NCBI GenBank assembly: GCA_000434775.1
Contig: FR895492.1
Coordinates: 129,520 to 175,625 of the forward strand
Length of the DNA: 46,106 bases
Direction: 5' to 3'
Source: Eggerthella sp. CAG:368
GTDB lineage: Bacteria > Actinomycetota > Coriobacteriia > Coriobacteriales > Eggerthellaceae
Shown: in pieces, positions 36,479 to 46,106 of the stretch
How positions within the stretch are numbered: the stretch's first letter is position 1
Layout: each line of letters starts with the position of its first letter
Program-made: the position numbers and the translations under genes
Notes under the pieces: generated by a model
What the model was told of the DNA's origin: nothing
Database searches by the model: none
Seen by the model: only the letters and a program-made list of their open reading frames with translations

Positions 36479-38548
36479 TTAAACGTGGTCCTCGACGTCG
36501 ATCATCATTAAGCTTACGTTGTCACGCATTTCTTTGGCTTGAAGACGCGTTAGCTGACCTGAAGCATAATGATCTTGAATCTCTTGAATTTCGTACTGAA
36601 GTCCTTTTCGTTGAATTTCCCTTAAACGGCTCTTTTCCCCTAAAACTCCAGGAGATTCAACATCTTCATCGCTCGACTGAAGAATACTCAACACCGTTTC
36701 ATGAGAAATCATCAACTTGGCAACAACCTCACTCGGATAGTTCGGATCATTCACAAGCGAGCTTAAAAACTCAATAGCATATTCTTCGCCCTTAATACGG
36801 ATTTTGCGCATTTCTTCATCGTTGAGATGAACATCTATATTGAACAATTCAGCGATTGATTTTTTGATCGCTTGAAAAAGCACACGAACGCGACCAAGGT
36901 ATTTTTGAAAAGACCAGAGTGATTCCTTCTCATGCGCAAGAAGGTACTTTTGCTGCATTATGCGTCTTAGATACGTAAAGCAAAGGTAATAATCAACCTC
37001 ATTTTTGTTGGACGCCTCAAGCAATTTATCTGCCTGATAATCGATAACCTGAATTCTTAACTTTGTTGTAGAAGGTGGCTCTAAATCACTTGCGTCACGA
37101 ATGGAAGCAATGCGCATGTTGTACGATCGAATAACGTCATTTGTTTCGCGATCAATATCATCATCGGAATCTGCGATTAACCGCTCGATAACCATTCGCA
37201 ATATTTCGATCTTAATAACCTGAAGCTCTTTTGTTTTCTCATCTTCATCATCTTCTTTAGGAGCCAAAACTGGCAGAAGGAAATTTGCCAAAAGAAGAGT
37301 GCATAAAATTACGCCAGAAGCCAAGAAAATAATGAGTGATCTTTGAGGAAAATCAGAACCATCCGATAAGAAAAAAGGAATGGAAAAGATAATCGAAAGC
37401 GTGATGGCACCCTTTGGCCCACCAACAGTAGTAATAAGAGCATTACGAATAGTGTTTTTGGTGAGTTTATCGCGCTTTCCCGTTTCAGGGTTTCTCGCAA
37501 CACAGGTCATTCCAAGGGCCCAAAGGAATCTGAGCACGACAATCAATGCCGTAATGCCTAAAACATAACCAATAACAACAAAGTTATTGATATAAACATC
37601 ACCCCACGTTGATTGCATTGCCATGGGAAGCTGCATACCAAGAAGAACAAACACAATGCCGTTAAGAGCAAAGCCAAGGACTTTCCATACACTTGAAAGT
37701 GCAATGTTCAAACGTGAACGATACGGGGAAACTTTCTTATCATTATTAAGCGACCACACAATGCCACACGCTACAACAGCCAAAATGCCACTCACTCCAA
37801 TGAGCTCCGAAATAAGAAAGACAACAAACGGCATAGAAACCTCAAACAAAACATGGAAGGTAATGTTGTCGAGGCCTAAATCGCGAATTTTAGAGGAAAT
37901 AAAGAGGAACAGAACAGCCAAAATGATACCCAACACAATGCCGCCGATAAAGCTAAAGAGTAGCGATGTAGTGGCATCGAGAAGAGAAAAGAACCCCGTG
38001 ACAGCAGCAGCGATTGCAAACTGAAATGAAACAACACCCGAGGCATCATTGACAAGCGCCTCTCCTTGTAGAATTGCACCTTCTCGTCTCTTAGGTTGAG
38101 CCTCTTGCTTGAGTGCTTGTACCGCAACAGCATCAGTAGGCCCTAAAGCCGCGCCCAAAGCAAAAGCGGCAGCCAAGGGAATAGAAGGAATCAGAGCATT
38201 AACAGCGAAGCCAACACAAAGAGTGATAACAATAACGAGGCCAATAGCAAACGACAGAATCGTCCCTTTGTTTTCCCATAGATTCTTTTTGTCGGCTTCA
38301 AGCGCATCACTAAACAACAGTGGAGCAATAAAGAGAATAAGGAACAGCTCAGGTTCAATATTGATAGTAACGGGCGAAATTGCCAAAAACGCAATTACAA
38401 CACCAAGACCAATCTGAATAAGAGGCAATGAAACTTTGGGGACGAACTGGTCAACAATCGATGAAATAAGTACCGCGATTCCTAATAATAATATCAGTTC
38501 AAAAGTCGCCAAATGATACTCCCAGCATGCGCAAATTTCTTTTCTCAT
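36479..38548 (-). CDS. CPA1-family Na+/H+ (cation/proton) antiporter with a long cytoplasmic C-terminal domain
   Basis: 689 aa. About 12 TM in the first roughly 430 aa (FELILLLGIAVLISS, ALGPTDAVAV, LVNDASGVV), then a soluble tail of about 250 aa. An alternative TTG start at 38512 has GGGAG 6 nt upstream. Confidence 0.85.
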   Translation of the reverse strand: MRKEICACWEYHLATFELILLLGIAVLISSIVDQFVPKVSLPLIQIGLGVVIAFLAISPVTINIEPELFLILFIAPLLFSDALEADKKNLWENKGTILSFAIGLVIVITLCVGFAVNALIPSIPLAAAFALGAALGPTDAVAVQALKQEAQPKRREGAILQGEALVNDASGVVSFQFAIAAAVTGFFSLLDATTSLLFSFIGGIVLGIILAVLFLFISSKIRDLGLDNITFHVLFEVSMPFVVFLISELIGVSGILAVVACGIVWSLNNDKKVSPYRSRLNIALSSVWKVLGFALNGIVFVLLGMQLPMAMQSTWGDVYINNFVVIGYVLGITALIVVLRFLWALGMTCVARNPETGKRDKLTKNTIRNALITTVGGPKGAITLSIIFSIPFFLSDGSDFPQRSLIIFLASGVILCTLLLANFLLPVLAPKEDDEDEKTKELQVIKIEILRMVIERLIADSDDDIDRETNDVIRSYNMRIASIRDASDLEPPSTTKLRIQVIDYQADKLLEASNKNEVDYYLCFTYLRRIMQQKYLLAHEKESLWSFQKYLGRVRVLFQAIKKSIAELFNIDVHLNDEEMRKIRIKGEEYAIEFLSSLVNDPNYPSEVVAKLMISHETVLSILQSSDEDVESPGVLGEKSRLREIQRKGLQYEIQEIQDHYASGQLTRLQAKEMRDNVSLMMIDVEDHV

Positions 38549-38653
38549 CTTTTATTAAAGCAAATAGCTTATAAGAAAACGAAATAAGCAAATGATTTGC
38601 ACAACTGCCATTATTGTTTCCGTATCTAGTGTCGTACTTGCGGGCGAACTCCT

Positions 38654-38680
38654 AAAAACCATCCACAGGATGGTTTTCTT
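38654..38680 (-). terminator. Hairpin terminator downstream of the tRNA-Lys remnant
   Basis: AAAACCATCC (38655-38664) pairs with GGATGGTTTT (38668-38677). A T-rich tail follows on both strands. Confidence 0.55.
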
Positions 38681-38763
38681 AACGGAATTCCACCCTAATG
38701 GGTTCGAGTCATGAATGTCTCATGAAAAAGAAAAAGCTCCATTGCTGAAGCGTAGTTTCAAAA

Positions 38764-38808
38764 TGGTGGACCGTCGGGGACTCGAACCCCGGACCTTGGG
38801 ATTAAGAG
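38764..38808 (-). other. 3' 45 nt of a tRNA-Lys(CUU) gene: attachment-site junction of the integrated element
   Basis: The reverse complement is CTCTTAATCCCAAGGTCCGGGGTTCGAGTCCCCGACGGTCCACCA. That covers anticodon loop CUCUUAA, the 3' anticodon stem, the variable loop, the T-arm, the acceptor 3' strand and CCA. Sequence 5' of the loop (…ACAATCCGCT) cannot form the anticodon stem, D-arm or GGACCGT acceptor strand, so the gene is truncated exactly where the element begins. Confidence 0.8.
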
Positions 38809-38918
38809 AGCGGATTGTATCGTCTCGTAACGTCTTCTTATATATAAAGAAGCTGGTCATTGCGGATTATATACTCTTATTTTTTGCCCCTTAGTGACCA
38901 AGATGTGACCATTTCTTT

Positions 38919-40034
38919 TTACTTGTGACCATCGGCACAACTCACTCGTTCAATAAGGTCTCCCACATCAGGCAGATCATAATGCTTATACGTAATGGCA
39001 TCGGTGGTATGCCCTAACAACTTAGCTATGTCTTCCAAATCTACGCCCTTGGTTCTCATATTAGTGGTGTAGCTATTCCTCAAATTTTTCAAGGGAATAA
39101 ACGGGTATTCTTTATCCAAAAACCAACGCTTATACTCACGCTTAACCTCCTCGGGATTTCTTGGCTGTCCAAGCCCGTTATCACACATCCACGCTAAACC
39201 ATCTTCTTGTGCTTGGCTTGCGAGTTCTAATATTCGATTTGTCCACGGCGGCGCAATAATAGCCCAACGCGATTCAATTCCCGCCGAATCTTCTGTTTTA
39301 AGCTTGTCCCTAACGCTTATCTTGCGGTTAACAATCTGCACAGTGGTATCAATGAGCAAAGCGGCGTATATATCGCCTTTATGCTCGATTGCGCTAATCT
39401 TTTCAGGCTTTAACCCAAACGCTTCAGAGACACGGCAGCCACCAAACGCAGCAGCCAAAAACACCGCTTCCCACACTTCCCCACGCGCGGCTTCTGCGAT
39501 TTTGCCAAGCGTAGCATCATCTCCCGTTGTCTTGTTGACGTTAATCACTCGCGTTTCTTTGCCTGGCAATCTGTAACGCCGCTGCATAATGTTTTCGCTC
39601 ACATAATCCATAGCATGAGCGCGTCCGAGCATTGCCGAGAAAGCAGTTTTAGCATGCCTAGCCGCACCATAGCTCATGGAATCAAGCCAAGCCTGAACTT
39701 CTTTACCTGTTATTTCATTTAATAGATGCTTACCGAACACGGGCTCAATTTTACTTCTGTAGATATTTCTATAGCCTGCAACAGTCGAAGGCGCTAAATG
39801 TTGTTCGATCTCTGGCAGGTAATACTTAACCCAGAAGAATGATACTGTCATTTGAGCGTCTGCTTGCTCAATATCGGCATGGATACGATCGAGTTCTAAT
39901 CGAGCATCCTTTTTGGTGCCGTGTATGGTTTTAGTGCCATAAAGACGTTTTCCCGTTTTAGCATCGTAGCCTTTAGGCCAGCGGATGCGCCAAGCATCGC
40001 CGCGCTTGCCAATGCTTCCCCATTCGCTTCTCAT
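38919..40034 (-). CDS. int: Tyrosine-type site-specific integrase
   Basis: 371 aa. N-terminal arm-binding-like region (WRIRWPKGYDAKTGKR), a SAM-like core-binding domain and a catalytic domain with R (GCRVSEAFGL), LRNSY, LGH and the nucleophile Y (ITYKHYD). SD AAGGTAAGGTGA is upstream. Confidence 0.92.
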   Translation of the reverse strand: MRSEWGSIGKRGDAWRIRWPKGYDAKTGKRLYGTKTIHGTKKDARLELDRIHADIEQADAQMTVSFFWVKYYLPEIEQHLAPSTVAGYRNIYRSKIEPVFGKHLLNEITGKEVQAWLDSMSYGAARHAKTAFSAMLGRAHAMDYVSENIMQRRYRLPGKETRVINVNKTTGDDATLGKIAEAARGEVWEAVFLAAAFGGCRVSEAFGLKPEKISAIEHKGDIYAALLIDTTVQIVNRKISVRDKLKTEDSAGIESRWAIIAPPWTNRILELASQAQEDGLAWMCDNGLGQPRNPEEVKREYKRWFLDKEYPFIPLKNLRNSYTTNMRTKGVDLEDIAKLLGHTTDAITYKHYDLPDVGDLIERVSCADGHK

Positions 40035-40282
40035 GGTACAATCACCTTACCTTCCGTTTATCGGTTGGTGTTCGTTTAGCCTCGCGCATATGAGCGGCAA
40101 CTCTGCGCGAGGTTTCTTTATTGCGTTGGCTTATCTGAACTGCTAATTTGCATTTTTTGCAATAACCACTCCCCCTAAACTTGCAGTTAATTTTTAATCT
40201 TTTTTGATAAGATATAAGCGGAACCTGAACGCGCGATAATGCGTCAGTAGGATTCCACAGGGGGCGGCTTTTGCCGCCCACC

Positions 40283-40699
40283 TTATTTATTTGAGGCTGA
40301 ATCTCTTGGCGAAAACGCTGGAATACTAAAAGATTCATATACTCCACTTGCGGTAGCTATTTTTATATAGGTACGCGCAATGTCTATCACTTTAAGTGCG
40401 CCTTCGTCTTTTAAGTACTCGTCCTTTTGGTCTTCTGTGGCATCGTCAAGGAAAATGAATATTGTTCTCGATTTGAAATGAATATCATAAGTTGGAGCAC
40501 CATTACTATCTACATCCAATACAAAATCGAGTACGATGTCGCCTTTGTCGTTTCTTTGTGGAAGAAACTTATAGTTCACAATTAGTTCGTGGCGTTTTTC
40601 TTCTTTGTTTTTCGCTTCAATATTGGACGCAAACGAAAACTCAAGAACCTTGCTATCGTCCATGTATACTGACAAGGGGGCAATCTTTTCAAAACTCAT
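40283..40699 (-). CDS. SecB-like chaperone (candidate TAC chaperone)
   Basis: 138 aa. It starts 2 nt after the MqsA-like stop, with GGGAGA as SD. By-eye similarity to SecB blocks: VLEFSFASNIEA versus SecB KDISFEAPNAP. Also ALKVIDIARTYIKIATASGVYESFSIPAF versus SecB [29 protein letters not shown] and Mtb Rv1957 YPYIREYVYDLTGRLALPPLTL. Confidence 0.6.
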   Translation of the reverse strand: MSFEKIAPLSVYMDDSKVLEFSFASNIEAKNKEEKRHELIVNYKFLPQRNDKGDIVLDFVLDVDSNGAPTYDIHFKSRTIFIFLDDATEDQKDEYLKDEGALKVIDIARTYIKIATASGVYESFSIPAFSPRDSASNK

Positions 40700-40701
40700 A
40701 A

Positions 40702-41193
40702 TTACATCTCCCTTGCTTCAAAATCATACGAAGCTTGTTCTTTTTGCGCCTTAGGAAATGGTAAAATAATGCAGTCCCCTCTATCTGCCATAATGCCAAC
40801 CTGCTTTATGCTTTCCATAAAGATATTGTCATGCTCTTTATAGATTCTCATGAGGTTATCTACAGGCTTTGTTTGTAATACTTTTCCGCTTTCCCAACGC
40901 GAAACAGTAGGGTCAGCAACACCTAGAACGCGCTGAAATTCTTTCTGTGTCAACCCATGACGCTTTCTTAGTTCCTTTATCCCTGTTGGAGATAAAAGCC
41001 CCACAGCTTTTGAGTACTGGTCAATAATTTGTTGGTCGTATTTCTTTCCCTCGGCAGCATCAAATACAATTTCGTCGCACTTTTCGCACTGGTAATAATT
41101 AATTCCACAAATAGTTAATTCTTCGCCGCGGAATACCTCAGTAAACGGCGCTGATGTTAAATGCATCTCTCCACCACATTCTAAGCAGCGCAT
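40702..41193 (-). CDS. MqsA-family antitoxin (Zn-ribbon + XRE HTH) with a C-terminal extension of about 31 aa
   Basis: 163 aa. MRCLECGGEM...FRGEEL...YYQCEKCDE matches the MqsA N-terminal CxxC...CxxC domain, and LRKRHGLTQKEFQRVLGVADPTVSRWESG matches the HTH. The tail VGIMADRGDCIILPFPKAQKEQASYDFEAREM extends past the end of E. coli MqsA. SD AAGGAG lies 6 nt upstream. Confidence 0.85.
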   Translation of the reverse strand: MRCLECGGEMHLTSAPFTEVFRGEELTICGINYYQCEKCDEIVFDAAEGKKYDQQIIDQYSKAVGLLSPTGIKELRKRHGLTQKEFQRVLGVADPTVSRWESGKVLQTKPVDNLMRIYKEHDNIFMESIKQVGIMADRGDCIILPFPKAQKEQASYDFEAREM

Positions 41194-41203
41194 AATAAAC
41201 TCC

Positions 41204-41527
41204 TTAATATGTATAGCCGTCCTCTTTTAAAGACCAAATCTCTAAAGAGGCTTTTCCGTTCTCTTCAATAAAAAACTTTACATACCATTCTTCGCCGTAA
41301 CAAATAACATGACGGTAAATATCAGCGAAAACTCCTGGAATATTTTCTAGCTTGTCGGTCTTGTAATAGTTCTCTGGGCGAATCGCAGCAAATACGTCTT
41401 CTATTGTCTCGTCTACAATGTACCCATGGTTTTGTAGATTGTTCCTAAGCCTCTTTGTTGCTCGATAGTTTGCTTCTTTGACGAGATTTTGCGCAACTTC
41501 AAGGTCGTAATAAGGCTCTCTTTCCAT
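41204..41527 (-). CDS. MqsR-family type II toxin (mRNA interferase)
   Basis: It aligns by eye along E. coli MqsR: YDLEVAQNLVKEANYRATK versus RLSQVKKLVNAGQVRTTR; ENYYKT versus SDFYKS; ADIYRH versus QDVYRP; WYVKF versus VYLKI; SLKED versus SFKEK. ATG 41527 is preferred (GGGGAG upstream). The ORF-track start 41533 is a TTG. Confidence 0.8.
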   Translation of the reverse strand: MEREPYYDLEVAQNLVKEANYRATKRLRNNLQNHGYIVDETIEDVFAAIRPENYYKTDKLENIPGVFADIYRHVICYGEEWYVKFFIEENGKASLEIWSLKEDGYTY

Positions 41528-41566
41528 GCGCAAACGCTCCCCTTTCTCCCATAATTTAGCACCATG

Positions 41567-41806
41567 CTAAATTAAGCTCAATAGAACATCTGTTTTTGCA
41601 CATATGGGTTCTAGTTCAAGTTCACCCTCGGAAACAATGTTTCTTAAATGCTTGCTTACAACTGTTCGACCTACATCAAAAAGCACAGCAATTTCTTCTT
41701 GCGTAAGCCAAAAGGTCTCATTCATATAGCGAACCTCGACAGGGACGTTTGTTTCTCCTGACTGATAAAGAATTATTTCAGCCTTAATCGGTTCGTTATT
41801 ATCCAT
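41567..41806 (-). pseudogene. N-terminal fragment (79 aa) of a RhuM-family protein
   Basis: IILYQSGETNVPVEVRYMNETFWLTQEEIAVLFDVGRTVVSKHLRNIVSEGEL matches the N-terminus typical of RhuM-family proteins, which are about 330 aa. The frame stops after about 79 aa, only 33 nt before the MqsR-like gene. Confidence 0.55.
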
Positions 41807-41978
41807 TTTGTTTCTCCATGTCCTCCCGAATAAGCCTCTTAATGTAGCCCGCTTTATTGGGTTGCGCGTCTAAATGAGCCAACAGATCGGCTTCACGCGG
41901 GGAAAACCTCACAACACGCTGAACAAGCTTTTCTTTGTGGTACTTCTTAGATGCTCTCTTTTGAGCTTCGGTAACCAT
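41799..41978 (-). CDS. Small ribbon-helix-helix (Arc/CopG-like) protein, 59 aa
   Basis: It is below the ORF-track cutoff. My translation is MVTEAQKRASKKYHKEKLVQRVVRFSPREADLLAHLDAQPNKAGYIKRLIREDMEKQNG. SD GAAGGAG lies 7 nt upstream of ATG 41978. Its stop overlaps the next ATG (AATGGATAA). Confidence 0.65.
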   Translation of the reverse strand: MVTEAQKRASKKYHKEKLVQRVVRFSPREADLLAHLDAQPNKAGYIKRLIREDMEKQNG

Positions 41979-42063
41979 TGCTATACTCCTTCATATGGAG
42001 GCGGCTTTAAGCTTCTTTCGGGAGAGCCTTGTCGGCTCTCCCTTGTTGCTCACTTCTTGCGAT

Positions 42064-42092
42064 TAAGAAGCTTGCACTTTATGGATACAGTG
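42064..42092 (-). promoter_or_regulatory. Near-consensus sigma-70 promoter with an embedded 18-bp perfect palindrome (operator candidate)
   Basis: The minus strand reads TTGACG (42092-42087), a 17-nt spacer, then TATAAT (42069-42064). TATAGTGTATACACTATA (42066-42083) is a perfect palindrome covering most of the spacer and 4 nt of the -10. The promoter drives the leader, RHH, RhuM fragment and MqsRA-SecB-like operon. Confidence 0.6.
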
Positions 42093-42283
42093 AGGGCGAG
42101 TCGCCATATCCGAATTGTGAAACTCATTGCCGCCTCCTTTCTTTTCTTTAACTTACAGTTATTATTATAGTGTATACACTATATACCGTCAAGCAAATAA
42201 TAAAAGAAATTCAGCGTTTATCAGGTGTTTTACCCAGCCTTGGTATGTATTGGTAAAGATTCGGAGCTATCTTTTTCGATTTA

Positions 42284-43117
42284 TTAATCCTGAAAGACAA
42301 TCAACAAACTCCAATAGTTAGCACGTCCTCCAAATGCATATTTCTTCTTTACATAACCGGAATAAATTATCTTTTTACCAACACAATTAGCAAGATTCTT
42401 ATATCTTGAACTTCTCGCATTAATATCAAAGAGAATTTCATCTTTTGCTTTTATAAGAACATGCGGTTTCTGTGTTGGTTTATGATCTACTGAAAAACTA
42501 ACCGTTAAACAAAGAGGAACTTCGTTCTTTTCCTCTTTGTCCGCTAAAAAACCCTCCTCGTATATATTGGCAATAAAAAAGTTGAAATTTGCTGGAAGAT
42601 CTATAGAAACAGATTCCCTAACTAGATTCTTTTCTCTCTCTTCGTCTCTTTGTCTAGATAACTCTTTCCCTTTTTCGTTTTCCAAAATAAAAAGTTCTAC
42701 ATAATTTGTCAGCGTTAGCTCTGTTCCGGCTTTCGGGAAAACTACCGCAAATGGAGCATAATCACCAACATCGTACCCTGATCTTTCGAGATAACCATTG
42801 CTTAAAATGCCGACCATTACCCCGCTATTGGACACTACAGCATAATCTCCTTCCTGAAAATTCCAATCAGTTATACGCTTTTTCCAATGCCTTGGAAGAT
42901 GGGCTTGCGATGGGTGTACCACCCTAAGAAGAACGGTGTCTCCATTTATCCCTATAAGTATCCACCTAAAGTAAGCACAGGCAGAAACACGCCAAGCATC
43001 AGCAACGTAAGCAGAAGGAGAGTAATATTCAGACCCTCTAGAGTTTTTGCCTTTTCCTTCGGAAGTGAAACTCCAAGATCTTTCTCCTCTTTTTTCTATA
43101 ACGGTGAACTCTTTCAC
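42284..43117 (-). CDS. Hypothetical protein, 277 aa, no recognisable domain; co-transcribed with the prophage repressor
   Basis: Long clean ORF. GTG 43117 lies 20 nt after the repressor stop on the same strand, with no intervening hairpin. I could not match any motif. By eye it is more AT-rich than its neighbours. Confidence 0.75.
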   Translation of the reverse strand: MKEFTVIEKRGERSWSFTSEGKGKNSRGSEYYSPSAYVADAWRVSACAYFRWILIGINGDTVLLRVVHPSQAHLPRHWKKRITDWNFQEGDYAVVSNSGVMVGILSNGYLERSGYDVGDYAPFAVVFPKAGTELTLTNYVELFILENEKGKELSRQRDEEREKNLVRESVSIDLPANFNFFIANIYEEGFLADKEEKNEVPLCLTVSFSVDHKPTQKPHVLIKAKDEILFDINARSSRYKNLANCVGKKIIYSGYVKKKYAFGGRANYWSLLIVFQD

Positions 43118-43137
43118 TAATCAACCTATCTCGTTTA

Positions 43138-43767
43138 CTAAAATTCCCAGTCGAACGGCAAAACGTAATAGACAACTCTACCTATAATGGTTATCTGCTC
43201 TGTTCCTTCTTCGTTATAGTTAAAAGTCTTTGTAGTGTATGTCGGATCATCAGAATCTGGTATTAGCTGGAATCCATTAGCAAGCTGCTTTACCCTCTTA
43301 ATGGTTGCATCGTAGCCATTAACACACACCGCATAGGGTTCATTGTCGTGGTCTATTTCTTTACAGGGATCAACCAGCGCAAAGCAGCCATTAGGAAGTA
43401 CACGATTCATACTCTCCCCCTCTACCTTTAACAGGAAGGCATCGGGATATTTTTCGTGTACCTTAGTTGGCACTGGTTGAGTTCCTTCAATATCAAGCAT
43501 TTCTATTGGCGTTCCAGCTGCAATGGATCCGTATAGAGGAACATCAACCATGGCACTATTAGGCAGTGACGAATTTTCCATTCCTAGCAAGTAAGATATA
43601 GTCACTCCAAGTGTCGCGCTCAGCTTAATTAAGACACTAGATTTTATGTCTCGAGCGCCAGCCTCATACCTTTGTATTGTTTGCTGGGTTGTCCCCATTT
43701 TGTCGGCAAGGTCTTGCTGAGACCATCCTTTTGCTATGCGAGCTTCCGCAATTTTATATCCAGCCAT
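43138..43767 (-). CDS. CI/LexA-like prophage repressor (XRE HTH + S24 autopeptidase)
   Basis: 209 aa. HTH (WSQQDLADKMGTTQQTIQRYEAG), an Ala-Gly cleavage region (GSIAAGTP) and a Ser/Lys dyad (VEGESMNRV, ATIKRV). Confidence 0.9.
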   Translation of the reverse strand: MAGYKIAEARIAKGWSQQDLADKMGTTQQTIQRYEAGARDIKSSVLIKLSATLGVTISYLLGMENSSLPNSAMVDVPLYGSIAAGTPIEMLDIEGTQPVPTKVHEKYPDAFLLKVEGESMNRVLPNGCFALVDPCKEIDHDNEPYAVCVNGYDATIKRVKQLANGFQLIPDSDDPTYTTKTFNYNEEGTEQITIIGRVVYYVLPFDWEF

Positions 43768-43789
43768 TTTTATATCCTTCGGATGTTAT

Positions 43790-43882
43790 ACACCGATATA
43801 GTGTTATTTTTTCACACCAAAACGGTTGCATGCAACACCAGAGGGGTGTATATTTATCACATCACAAACACCGTTTCGGTGT
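43790..43882. promoter_or_regulatory. Immunity-switch operator array and divergent promoters
   Basis: There are four 15-bp sites of form ACACC-N5-GGTGT. They are 43790-43804 (ACACCGATATAGTGT), 43814-43828 (ACACCAAAACGGTTG), 43835-43849 (ACACCAGAGGGGTGT) and 43868-43882 (ACACCGTTTCGGTGT). A 14-bp palindrome GGTTGCATGCAACC lies at 43824-43837. The rightward promoter is TTGCAT (43826-31), a 17-nt spacer and TATATT (43849-54). Confidence 0.6.
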
Positions 43883-43894
43883 TAGGAGGTGAAA

Positions 43895-44119
43895 ATGAGA
43901 GGAAATATGAAAGCAGAAAGAGCGCGCTTAAACCTGTCGCTCGAAGATGTAGCTAATGCCGTTGGAGTTAACAAGAACTCTGTGGCTCGATGGGAGAGCG
44001 GAGAAGTCGAACCTGTCTCCGAGAATCTCGAAAAACTAGCAGAACTGTACGGGTGCTCTGTGGAGTACTTGCTTGAACAAACACCAGATCGCCACGGGAA
44101 AGCGATTGCAAAAGTTTAA
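43895..44119 (+). CDS. Cro/CI-family HTH protein (Cro-like)
   Basis: MRGNMKAERARLNLSLEDVANAVGVNKNSVARWESGEVEP. AGGAGG lies 5 nt upstream of ATG 43895. The ORF-track start 43889 is a GTG inside the SD. Confidence 0.85.
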   Translation: MRGNMKAERARLNLSLEDVANAVGVNKNSVARWESGEVEPVSENLEKLAELYGCSVEYLLEQTPDRHGKAIAKV

Positions 44120-44279
44120 ACATCCCCAAACACTCCCCTATGTGGCAGCAGGTACCTAATTCGGATTTCTCCTAATCGGTTGCCTCATTTTGCCCCTTAA
44201 ACCCATCTACCTGCTGTCATTTAGGGAGTGTTTAGCACCTTGAAAACCGCATAAAGACACGAAGAGAAAGGAGGAAGAG

Positions 44280-44441
44280 ATGGAAGCCTTAGTAGTAGAA
44301 CTCGTGCCGAAAATTAAGGGCTGCGATCTTAAAAAAATTCTCAAAATCACAGCCCATTTAAAGTGGCACGCAGAAGAAGCAGAACGCCTTTCTAGAGAAC
44401 TTAACGAAGAACTTGCTAAAGCCGAACCTCACGTTGACTAA
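44280..44441 (+). CDS. Small hypothetical phage protein, 53 aa
   Basis: Below the ORF-track cutoff. AAAGGAGGAAGAG lies immediately upstream of ATG 44280. Translation: MEALVVELVPKIKGCDLKKILKITAHLKWHAEEAERLSRELNEELAKAEPHVD. Confidence 0.55.
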   Translation: MEALVVELVPKIKGCDLKKILKITAHLKWHAEEAERLSRELNEELAKAEPHVD

Positions 44442-44822
44442 AGAGAGAAAGAGCAGAGAAAGTTCTTAGCTAGTCAATAGCGGCTAAGAGTGAATCTAGG
44501 TGGTAACTAGGCATGACTAGCACCAACCTAGAGCCAAGCTTTTTTCTTTCACTTGCACTGATTAGGTTAAAGGGTCAATCCGCCCTTGTTTCCCGTGCGG
44601 GAAACGATAGTTCACCTTTTGAGTGAACCCCCTAAAACAGCAGGCATTCATGCTTACCTCTTTAGTTGCAAACTTCAAGCAGCTTACGCTTGGGCGGCTT
44701 TGCTATTTACGAAAGACCGCCATCTCAAAATGTTGGCCAAAATGACCACCTCCTTTTGTAGAGGCATTTAGAGACACAAACAGTATAAGAACAAACATTC
44801 ATATACGTAAAGGAGAAAACAT

Positions 44823-45014
44823 ATGAGAAGCAACATTGCAAAGCTATGCGAAGAAAAAGGCATTAGCCGTTATCGACTAGCTAAGAACTTAGGTATCACG
44901 GATGAAATCTTATACCGATACGAAAAGAAAGGCTTAGACAAAGCGCAATTTGGCTACATGGTCAAAATCGCTAAAGAACTTGGATGTTCACTTGAAGAGC
45001 TATACGAGGAGTAA
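44823..45014 (+). CDS. Small XRE-family HTH protein, 63 aa
   Basis: IAKLCEEKGISRYRLAKNLGITDEILYRYEKKG. SD AAAGGAG lies 7 nt upstream. Confidence 0.8.
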   Translation: MRSNIAKLCEEKGISRYRLAKNLGITDEILYRYEKKGLDKAQFGYMVKIAKELGCSLEELYEE

Positions 45015-45016
45015 AA

Positions 45017-45100
45017 ATGAAAAGATTTCTCTGGCTTCTATTTTGCTTTATCACAGGTGCAATAGTTGCTCACTTATTAAGCTTACACAAGCTTACATAG
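45017..45100 (+). CDS. 27-aa hydrophobic mini-protein (single predicted TM)
   Basis: MKRFLWLLFCFITGAIVAHLLSLHKLT. GAGGAG lies 5 nt upstream of the ATG and overlaps the end of the preceding gene. Confidence 0.4.
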   Translation: MKRFLWLLFCFITGAIVAHLLSLHKLT

Positions 45101-45147
45101 CTCATTAAATTCACTAGAACTTAGGCCAATTTTATTTACGCAATACA

Positions 45148-45606
45148 TTAACCCTCCAACCACTTACTACGATGCTTCCTTATTTCAAGAATAACATCGG
45201 GCTGAATTTGGAAGTCTATCCATTCAAAAACCCCCGTAAAAGGGGGCATACCAAAAATACCAAGCTCGCACAGAGTAAGAGCATCGTGATCATGAGCACT
45301 TAGATTAACGGAACCCTCATTTAAGGCTTCAATAACAAGCCCACGTTGGCGATTGGTTAGTGAAGCAAAACAGCGTTCGAGATTTTTTATTTTTTGGCGC
45401 TTTGTCGCTGGGGTTTGTCGGCTATGCCCAACACCACGACGGTATCCACAACTATAACCAAGAACACCCATAGCTGTACCGAAAGCTACACAAGCAAAGG
45501 TATCAATGTCAGGGACAACGTAAGACAGAACAAAAGAGATAAGCCAAGACACAAGGGAGGAAATAACAGCAGAAAAAACAGTGCCTAAAACATCGAAGTT
45601 TTGCAT
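45148..45606 (-). CDS. 2-TM membrane protein; C-terminal domain tentatively SieB-like (superinfection exclusion)
   Basis: 152 aa. TM1 is VLGTVFSAVISSLVSWLISFVLSYVV and TM2 is FACVAFGTAMGVLGYSCGY. The soluble tail LERCFASLTNRQRGLVIEALNEGSVNL...ALTLCELGIF...IQPDVILEIRKH follows the pattern I recall for SieB-family proteins. SD AGGAG lies 4 nt upstream. It is oriented against the early operon. Confidence 0.7.
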   Translation of the reverse strand: MQNFDVLGTVFSAVISSLVSWLISFVLSYVVPDIDTFACVAFGTAMGVLGYSCGYRRGVGHSRQTPATKRQKIKNLERCFASLTNRQRGLVIEALNEGSVNLSAHDHDALTLCELGIFGMPPFTGVFEWIDFQIQPDVILEIRKHRSKWLEG

Positions 45607-45632
45607 TGCGCTCCTAACAGAAAGGTAAAAAC

Positions 45633-45716
45633 ATGAATCAGTTTATCCCATTTCTCGCAATGACTTTTATTGGCGTTGTATGCGCCTTAATCGGATACAA
45701 GATAGGGCGAATGTAA
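45633..45716 (+). CDS. 27-aa hydrophobic mini-protein (single predicted TM)
   Basis: MNQFIPFLAMTFIGVVCALIGYKIGRM. AGAAAGG lies 7 nt upstream. Its ATG is only 26 nt from the divergent ATG of the 2-TM gene. Confidence 0.4.
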   Translation: MNQFIPFLAMTFIGVVCALIGYKIGRM

Positions 45717-45815
45717 GCCATCGAAAACAACAAAAAGCCCCCGCCACACCACTGACGAGGGCAACCGCTTAGAAGCGGACAACACATTAACGATTCTAAG
45801 GAGGATCGATGAATT

Positions 45816-46007
45816 ATGCAAGTAACAACACCACTCACTATAGGAGTGAAAGAAGCAGCCAAAATAACGGGGTTACCAGCGAGCTTCATATATCAATGTT
45901 GCCGCAGACAGGACGAGCTGAGACTCCCTCACATCAAAAGCGGTACTCGTATTCACGTAATCACCAAAGAGATACCAGCTTGGATGGAAAAACTCGCAGA
46001 AAGCTAA
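45816..46007 (+). CDS. Excisionase-family / HTH_17 (AlpA-Xis-like) DNA-binding protein
   Basis: 63 aa. LTIGVKEAAKITGLPASFIYQCCRRQDELRLPHIKSGTRIHV fits the MerR-like winged-helix excisionase pattern (L-T-x-x-E-A-A-x-x-L-G-x-S-x-x-x-I-Y...G-x-R). AAGGAGG lies 11 nt upstream. Confidence 0.75.
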   Translation: MQVTTPLTIGVKEAAKITGLPASFIYQCCRRQDELRLPHIKSGTRIHVITKEIPAWMEKLAES

Positions 46008-46106
46008 CTGATCTGGAAGCCTTACTAATCGCTCTACTTACCGCGTCTGTTCTTCTGTTTTATCTATACGCAATGGGCGTGGTGACGTTTCAATGAGCGC
46101 ATGGAC

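Follow-up and report, generated by a model that had tools for sequence, protein, structure and literature searches.

The 46,106-nt stretch of contig FR895492.1 from Eggerthella sp. CAG:368 analyzed here (the window) contains three minus-strand genes that most probably constitute a toxin-antitoxin-chaperone (TAC) operon of the MqsRAC type, an exchangeable cargo cassette that lies beside the integrase gene of a temperate phage, the host being a Coriobacteriia bacterium of the human gut. The probability of this reading is put at about 80%. The evidence consists of the assignment of the first two genes to the MqsR toxin and MqsA antitoxin families, the C-terminal tail of the antitoxin, a SecB-like fold predicted for the product of the third gene (gene 3), and the co-occurrence of the tail with the third gene among relatives. 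A TAC-type module was also the conclusion of the original prediction, which was made from the sequence without database searches, and these results uphold it. The parts of the cassette are as follows.

40133..41592, minus strand: the whole cassette of 1.46 kb, comprising the promoter/operator, mqsR, mqsA, the secB-like gene, a hairpin and a tail of ~130 nt, delimited by blastn and junction alignments against viral contig L053.
41553..41581, minus strand: a promoter-like site, TTGAGC-17 nt-TGcTAAATT, with an extended -10 element, a candidate read from the sequence.
41552..41574, unstranded: a perfect 10-3-10 palindrome, TAATTTAGCA-TGG-TGCTAAATTA, a candidate MqsA operator that overlaps the -10 element.
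41204..41527, minus strand: MqsR-family toxin of 107 aa (gene 1), a putative RelE-fold mRNA interferase (Pfam PF15723).
40702..41193, minus strand: MqsA-family antitoxin of 163 aa (gene 2) with a zinc ribbon, a helix-turn-helix (HTH) domain and a C-terminal tail (PF15731, TIGR03830, PDB 2kz8/3gn5).
40705..40806, minus strand: codons of the antitoxin tail, residues ~130-163 (...VGIMADRGDCIILPFPKAQKEQASYDFEAREM), a putative chaperone-addiction (ChAD) extension beyond the end of E. coli MqsA.
40283..40699, minus strand: gene 3, a divergent protein of 138 aa with a SecB fold predicted by AlphaFold2 and Foldseek, a putative dedicated chaperone (MqsC / SecB-TA).
40262..40279, unstranded: a G+C-rich hairpin, GGGCGGC-AAAA-GCCGCCC, 4 nt after the gene 3 stop.

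The open reading frame (ORF) table and the sequence define three consecutive minus-strand ORFs in the order toxin, antitoxin, gene 3, with intergenic gaps of 10 nt and 2 nt. A Shine-Dalgarno (SD) sequence of the GGAG type precedes each start. The toxin SD is AAGGGGAG, located 9 nt before the ATG, the antitoxin SD (AAGGAG) overlaps the toxin stop, and the gene 3 SD is AGGGAG. The alternative toxin start at TTG 41533 is unlikely because only 3 nt would remain after the SD, and the ATG is also the start chosen by gene callers on identical contigs. Tight packing on the minus strand, the two gaps, the individual SD sequences and a third gene of 138 aa had all been described in the original prediction, and its coordinates and anatomy agree with the ORF list (gene 3 is ORF 40699..40283). 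The short gaps together with one candidate promoter/operator upstream and one hairpin downstream fit a tightly coupled toxin, antitoxin and chaperone operon. A 101-aa ORF (40042..40347), which overlaps the end of gene 3 and covers both the hairpin and the cassette's non-coding tail, was judged spurious.

Gene 1 is identified as an MqsR by Pfam MqsR_toxin (PF15723) with E = 1.2e-9 and 38.9 bits against a gathering cut-off of 26.2, and the match spans profile positions 2-90 of 95. Family membership is detected by the Pfam profile alone, and a direct phmmer search of the PDB with the toxin returned no MqsR match. The toxin and four relatives were aligned to E. coli MqsR, whose sequence was confirmed to be identical to 3hi2. 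Brown and colleagues are said to have proposed in 2009 that K56, Q68, Y81 and K96 are the catalytic residues of the E. coli enzyme. In this alignment, at 24% identity, gene 1 retains counterparts of K56, Y81 and K96 (its K56, Y82 and K101) and also D69, Y71 and K83.

Gene 2 is above threshold for both Pfam MqsA_antitoxin (PF15731; E = 1.6e-14, 54.6 bits against a cut-off of 30) and NCBIfam TIGR03830 (96.6 bits against 61.8). Its residues 1-126 align to residues 1-128 of the 131 in E. coli MqsA (PDB 2kz8 and 3gn5, 2.4e-8). The four zinc cysteines (C3, C6, C36 and C39) are present and invariant among the aligned antitoxins, and the HTH domain is recognized by Pfam HTH_3 at 2.9e-10. A PADLOC scan of the antitoxin matched no specific model, only generic HTH-containing models, the best of which was RmrA (E = 1.4e-5). 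The likeness of gene 1 to E. coli MqsR and that of gene 2 to the zinc ribbon and HTH of MqsA, both claimed in the original prediction, therefore stand at the level of curated profiles. The extra antitoxin C terminus claimed with them is also real, and its length is corrected: it extends ~34 rather than ~31 residues beyond the point where E. coli MqsA ends.

The tails of the window antitoxin and four aligned relatives vary in sequence around two invariant phenylalanines, F146 and F158. F146 lies inside a hydrophobic I-I/V-x-P-F-like patch that is common to three of the four relatives. The HigA1 ChAD of Mycobacterium tuberculosis (Mtb) contains two similar aromatic motifs (Guillet et al. 2019, PMC6377645). 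By analogy, the two conserved tail phenylalanines appear to recall these two motifs and the aromatic patterns recognized by the HigC chaperone, and the MqsA tail is a putative ChAD extension.

A likeness of gene 3 to SecB and Rv1957 had been put forward as a lead in the original prediction, and it was not accepted at face value because sequence searches of Pfam, NCBIfam, PADLOC and the PDB were empty. Among the profile searches proposed there, those with MqsR_toxin and the MqsA models passed, and the SecB profile gave no match to the 138-aa protein. The likeness fails with direct sequence models and is recovered by a family alignment and structure prediction. The only match to PHROGs was weak (E = 0.006), and phmmer against the PDB gave dehydratase matches at chance level (E > 0.4).

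When 1.84 billion cluster representatives were searched exhaustively with phmmer, only 14 proteins of the gene 3 family came up at E < 1e-3, and alignment A1, consisting of 13 sequences, was built from these matches. Pfam SecB is detected below threshold in 8 of the 13 A1 members (best E = 3e-4) and in L027 and L017. The A1 profile aligns in register with residues 33-133 of E. coli SecB, a weak match with E = 0.65 in the PDB search. A word-indexed protein search with gene 3 returned gene 3 itself as the sole match, and the same search with the A1 profile returned five proteins, namely the window protein, three that were already in A1 and one that was new (P0015). A single-protein scan of GTDB representatives came back empty, and tblastn with gene 3 against INPHARED phages gave no match.

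Structure prediction from the single gene 3 sequence was unusable, with a predicted local distance difference test (pLDDT) score of 39. AlphaFold2 with A1 produced a model with a pLDDT of 85.1 and a predicted template modeling score (pTM) of 0.76, whose predicted topology consists of strands β1-β4, a long α1 helix and a short α2 helix. The first match in a Foldseek search of the PDB is 5mtw, Rv1957 complexed with a ChAD peptide (E = 2e-6, template modeling (TM) score 0.64-0.67), and E. coli and H. influenzae SecB come next with TM scores up to 0.69. The top 18 matches are all Rv1957 or SecB (E = 2e-6 to 9e-5, TM 0.61-0.69), and the 23 matches at E ≤ 0.001 comprise, besides chains of SecB and Rv1957, just two small proteins without a known function. 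No other fold scored better than E = 0.05. A hot-dog/thioesterase fold, considered because hot-dog folds turn up among the low-scoring Foldseek matches, was rejected, with hits at E > 0.05 and TM scores of 0.2-0.3 versus 0.61-0.69 for the SecB-family chains. The best match among the predicted viral structures of BFVD is a phage protein named SecB (E = 2.5e-5, TM 0.67). Sequence identity between gene 3 and Rv1957 is 11-16%. From this model it is concluded that gene 3 is predicted to have a SecB fold; the original prediction depended on such similarity, and the predicted fold matches SecB/Rv1957 at E = 2e-6 to 9e-5. SecB family members are homotetramers arranged as a dimer of dimers through β1 and α1. 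The topology of the modeled gene 3 monomer is compatible with a SecB-type tetramer.

Identical copies of the three genes are present on 10 contigs from human-gut samples, including the Eggerthella sp. CAG:368 assembly, and all of them sit between a CI-like repressor and an integrase. All gene 3 relatives with sufficient flanking DNA occur in the order MqsR, long-tailed MqsA, gene 3. This order is found in P0002, P0003, P0005, P0012 and IMG/VR contig L017, with MqsR proteins of 105-110 aa and MqsA proteins of 160-183 aa. The gene 3 relatives at these loci are 25-40% identical to gene 3, the MqsA and gene 3 ORFs are 2-4 nt apart or overlap by 4 nt, and the usual neighbors of the module are genes for an integrase and an S24 repressor. 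In species-representative genomes, the MqsA proteins most closely related to gene 2 all come from Coriobacteriia (Eggerthellaceae, Collinsella, Olsenella, Thermophilibacter and Atopobium), and so far the SecB-like lineage has been met alongside mqsRA in genomes of Coriobacteriia and in viral contigs from the gut.

Loci were scanned with hidden Markov models built from A1-A3, and the antitoxins were aligned for tail length. A third ORF is present at 13 of the 14 clade loci with tails of at least 32 aa. The A1 profile recognizes 10 of these 13, and the other three (L020, L021 and L024) are more divergent and of similar size. The short-tailed MqsA relatives L018 (10 aa) and L023 (5 aa) have no third gene. 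The C-terminal extension co-occurs with the third gene within the clade.

The promoter-like site matches the hexamers at 8 of 12 positions, which is under the scanner threshold, and TTG and TAAAT elements recur at equivalent spacing in related loci. The palindrome over its -10 element, a candidate MqsA operator written as TAATTTAGCATGGTGCTAAATTA, begins 25 nt upstream of the toxin start codon. Its core, ATTTAGCA-N3-TGCTAAAT, occurs once in the 46-kb window versus 0.03 occurrences expected by chance. The palindrome (ATTTAGCAT-N-ATGCTAAAT) stands ahead of mqsR in 16 of 16 clade loci examined, whatever the upstream gene. The half-sites of L022, L024, L026 and L027 carry symmetric changes from GCAT.ATGC to GCGT.ACGC that preserve the dyad. 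Because the conserved palindrome overlaps a promoter-like site before mqsR in 16 loci, it points to autoregulation by MqsA and would be the operator expected of a dimeric HTH protein. The E. coli MqsA site is ACCT-N-AGGT, unlike the ATTTAGCAT-N-ATGCTAAAT palindrome of the window. At the other end of the cassette, the hairpin has no T-run after it on the minus strand and likely marks the end of the transcription unit.

Three features lie in the flanking DNA.

38919..40034, minus strand: prophage tyrosine integrase (Pfam Phage_int_SAM_3 1.8e-11, Phage_integrase 1.3e-6).
43138..43767, minus strand: CI/LexA-like repressor with an HTH domain and an S24 peptidase domain (HTH_3 1.1e-17, Peptidase_S24 5.7e-19).
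41567..41806, minus strand: 79-aa ORF outside the module that contains the N-terminal 71 residues of a RhuM-like protein (PADLOC PDC-S05, E = 3.6e-21).

A divergent Cro-like HTH ORF is located at 43889..44119. The cassette is located at the prophage end, where ~100 bp separate it from the integrase gene. The placement of the module between the integrase and repressor genes of a phage-like element, as originally described, is correct, and its status as prophage cargo is confirmed by a near-identical viral contig that holds another gene in this slot. That contig, L053, matches the window at 96% identity to the left and right of the module. The blastn junctions are window 41999..41593 to L053 1480-1886 (96.3%) and window 40132..39624 to L053 2669-3177 (95.7%), and the junction alignments confirm the cassette breakpoints. 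Between the junctions, L053 has 782 bp that complete a RhuM-like gene and the window has 1,460 bp (41592..40133) containing the operator, the three genes and the hairpin. The full-length RhuM-like gene of L053 (1673-2683) encodes 336 aa and is 97% identical to the window ORF over residues 1-71; the protein matches the PADLOC families PDC-S05/PDC-S23 (candidate defense). Because L053 has the intact gene across the cassette site, the 79-aa ORF is a RhuM-like gene of which the cassette has left just the 5' part, and because the RhuM-like gene occupies the place of the cassette, the module is swappable cargo. A self-contained cassette has replaced another probable defense gene in the slot next to int. 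A 59-aa ORF (41799-41978, minus strand) overlaps the start of the RhuM-like ORF by 8 nt. It reads as ribbon-helix-helix-like, has 33 relatives in IMG/VR viral contigs and matches PHROGs families of unknown function. Its product may regulate the RhuM-like gene or act as its antitoxin partner.

MqsRA-based TAC systems have been reported, as the original prediction stated. The MqsRA of V. cholerae RC385 needs its SecB-TA chaperone via a transferable ChAD, MqsA residues 136-176 (Bordes et al. 2016, PMC5105189). MqsRAC of E. coli C496_10 protects against T2 (Vassallo et al. 2022, PMC9519451). In that system, MqsR toxicity is rescued only by MqsA and MqsC together and T2 protection is abolished by extra MqsC chaperone (PMC9519451). 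The window module shares with these two systems the toxin, antitoxin, chaperone order, an MqsR-family toxin, an MqsA-family antitoxin with a zinc ribbon, an HTH domain and a C-terminal extension of ~35-40 residues, a third component with a SecB fold (predicted here), and a location on mobile DNA. It differs from them in a chaperone that is too divergent for Pfam SecB and in its host, a Gram-positive gut Coriobacteriia bacterium. The likeness to E. coli K-12 MqsRA (3hi2, 3gn5) covers the toxin and antitoxin folds and families, the zinc cysteines and a promoter-overlapping palindrome that suggests autoregulation; the K-12 system has neither tail nor chaperone, and toxin identity is 24%.

The Mtb HigB1-HigA1-Rv1957 system (5mtw) provides the best structural match to gene 3 and the parallel between two conserved tail phenylalanines and two ChAD aromatic motifs. 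Unlike the window module, it is built on HigBA rather than MqsRA and is chromosomal rather than in a prophage, and its ChAD motifs are rich in Trp and Arg where the window tail has I-I-L-P-F. The setting of the window module is shared by E. coli HigBAC and CmdTAC, TAC systems that prophages carry as cargo close to the cI repressor, within the variable lysogeny region. HigBAC lies next to cI in a lambdoid prophage and is triggered when the HigC chaperone binds the lambda major tail protein gpV, which HigC recognizes through ChAD-like aromatic patterns (Mets et al. 2024, bioRxiv 10.1101/2024.02.24.581848). The mechanism proposed for HigBAC/CmdTAC, in which a structural protein of the phage titrates the chaperone, is adopted here as the model. 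The toxin-antitoxin warheads of HigBAC/CmdTAC differ from those of the window, and the window slot is between the repressor and int and alternates with a RhuM-like gene.

The proposed mechanism starts with an MqsA dimer that would bind the palindrome and repress the operon. The MqsA tail would make the antitoxin prone to aggregation or proteolysis unless it is bound by the SecB-like tetramer, and as long as chaperone is available MqsA would neutralize the MqsR mRNA interferase. Should the chaperone be titrated, perhaps by unfolded structural protein that an infecting phage produces, MqsA would be lost. Freed MqsR would then cleave mRNA, arrest translation and stop growth. The growth stop would protect the lysogen population by abortive infection and incidentally stabilize the prophage. 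Chaperone dependence, RNase activity, the trigger and the defense phenotype are each expected by analogy with the TAC systems described above.

Several observations weigh against this reading. Gene 3 has no match in Pfam (including SecB), NCBIfam or PADLOC. Its best relative scores 21.9 bits with Pfam SecB against a cut-off of 26, and the sequence-level links are all below curated thresholds. Pairwise hhalign places the A1 profile on E. coli SecB at low probability (E = 0.0077), and the fold assignment comes from a predicted model based on just 13 sequences. No relationship to A1 is detectable for the third ORFs of L020, L021 and L024, apart from one weak link between L020 and L027 (E = 4.6e-4). 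No third ORF was found downstream of the MqsA gene in L022 (3001-3537 + downstream), where the tail is 49 aa, or in L026 (2980-3465 + downstream), where the tail is 27 aa and a convergent ABC-transporter-like gene follows; these two loci may have lost the chaperone or receive it in trans. The position of E. coli MqsR Q68 is Ala across the whole clade, so MqsR toxin activity is assumed. Finally, the anti-phage role is extrapolated from the E. coli systems.

In the alternative that survives best, the same three proteins serve mainly as a prophage addiction or stabilization module or as a stress-responsive growth switch and do not sense phage. Loss of the element or proteotoxic stress would deplete the chaperone and antitoxin and free MqsR. 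Such a role agrees with the first description of TAC as a stress-responsive toxin-antitoxin system under the control of a SecB-like chaperone (PMC3581621, PMC5105189), with the location of the cassette beside the integrase gene at the prophage end, and with the lack of a PADLOC model specific to any of the three proteins. However, MqsRAC, CmdTAC and HigBAC all defend against phages with the chaperone as the sensor, and the presence of a RhuM-like gene matching PDC-S05 in the same slot of a 96%-identical phage is a pattern typical of a defense hot spot. One module could fill both roles, and a mainly addiction or stress function is considered improbable.

Gene 3 could instead be a SecB-fold protein with another job, for instance as a chaperone for phage assembly or export, or as a factor that acts on the toxin, that stands beside an ordinary two-part MqsRA whose tail is not a chaperone-addiction element. 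Stand-alone SecB-like proteins are encoded in phage genomes, the similarity of gene 3 to SecB is structural and predicted only, and L022 and L026 have long tails without a detectable third gene. This account is nevertheless very unlikely: every A1-family member with flanking DNA lies directly after a long-tailed MqsA in otherwise different neighborhoods, short-tailed relatives do not have the third gene, the best structural match is a TAC chaperone complexed with a ChAD peptide, and the cassette moves as a unit. The idea that the module is a decaying remnant, with a toxin inactivated by the missing catalytic Gln (Ala in place of E. coli Q68) and genes that persist by hitch-hiking next to an already truncated RhuM-like gene, is close to negligible, since the three ORFs are intact here and in the identical copies on 10 contigs from several samples, Ala at this position is common to the whole clade, and the K56/Y81/K96 equivalents, the zinc cysteines, the tail motifs and the operator are kept in relatives of 33-55% identity, which argues for purifying selection.

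The MqsRAC reading extends the tested systems of this type to prophages of human-gut Coriobacteriia. MqsRAC is an already known kind of system, and the current picture of TAC function is unchanged by the window module. The divergence of the chaperone beyond curated models, the Coriobacteriia prophage setting and the documented cassette swap are mildly new. Sequence-based defense finders miss such modules because the chaperone can drift beyond the reach of Pfam, NCBIfam and PADLOC. The near-identical phage with another gene in the slot gives clean cassette boundaries and a natural pair for comparing what the cassette adds to superinfection exclusion, and the conserved operator is a handle on MqsA autoregulation in the clade.

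A more specific proposal is tentative and, taken as a whole, on the unlikely side. The int-proximal slot of these Coriobacteriia prophages would be an exchangeable defense locus in which a mqsRAC cassette with a promoter, operator and terminator of its own replaced the RhuM-like gene, and the chaperone would belong to a small lineage of SecB-like sensors, too diverged for sequence models, that recognizes a structural protein of gut Coriobacteriia phages unlike the known TAC triggers. If so, L022 and L026 might borrow a chaperone in trans or have lost the dependence on one.

Other features of the lysogeny region lie outside the module. A 277-aa ORF (42284-43117, minus strand) between the CI-like repressor and the ribbon-helix-helix-like gene is another unknown cargo gene; it has no Pfam or PADLOC match, a chance-level PHROGs match (E = 0.04) and no IMG/VR relatives in a close-relative scan. 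Positions 38762-38815 (minus strand), ~100 nt beyond the integrase gene, read as the 3' part of a tRNA or tmRNA, with the T-arm CGGGG-TTCGAGT-CCCCG, an acceptor strand and CCA. ARAGORN and Rfam called no complete tRNA or tmRNA gene there, and the segment is probably an att-site remnant that marks the prophage end, with the intact gene beyond the window.

A strongly structured RNA of ~140 nt (41975-42160, minus strand) lies between a near-consensus promoter (TTGACG-17-TATAAT, 42192..42164) and the 59-aa ribbon-helix-helix-like gene. An 18-bp perfect palindrome, TATAGTGTA|TACACTATA, covers the -10 element of this promoter. Rfam gave no match on 38000-46106, and blastn of the RNA against INPHARED phages gave none. 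The minimum free energy of the RNA is -70.8 kcal/mol versus -42.1 ± 3.8 for shuffled sequences (z = -7.5). It holds a 25-codon ORF, MSFTIRIWRLALTVSIKCKLLNRKK, and a perfectly complementary 9-nt segment located 100 nt downstream sequesters the SD of this ORF (GGAGGCGGC). The homologue of this RNA in viral contig L054 keeps the peptide (MSFTIRIWRISATISIRLKLLNRR) and has a similar fold (z = -5.8). The structured RNA could be a leader/attenuator or a type I toxin-like mRNA.

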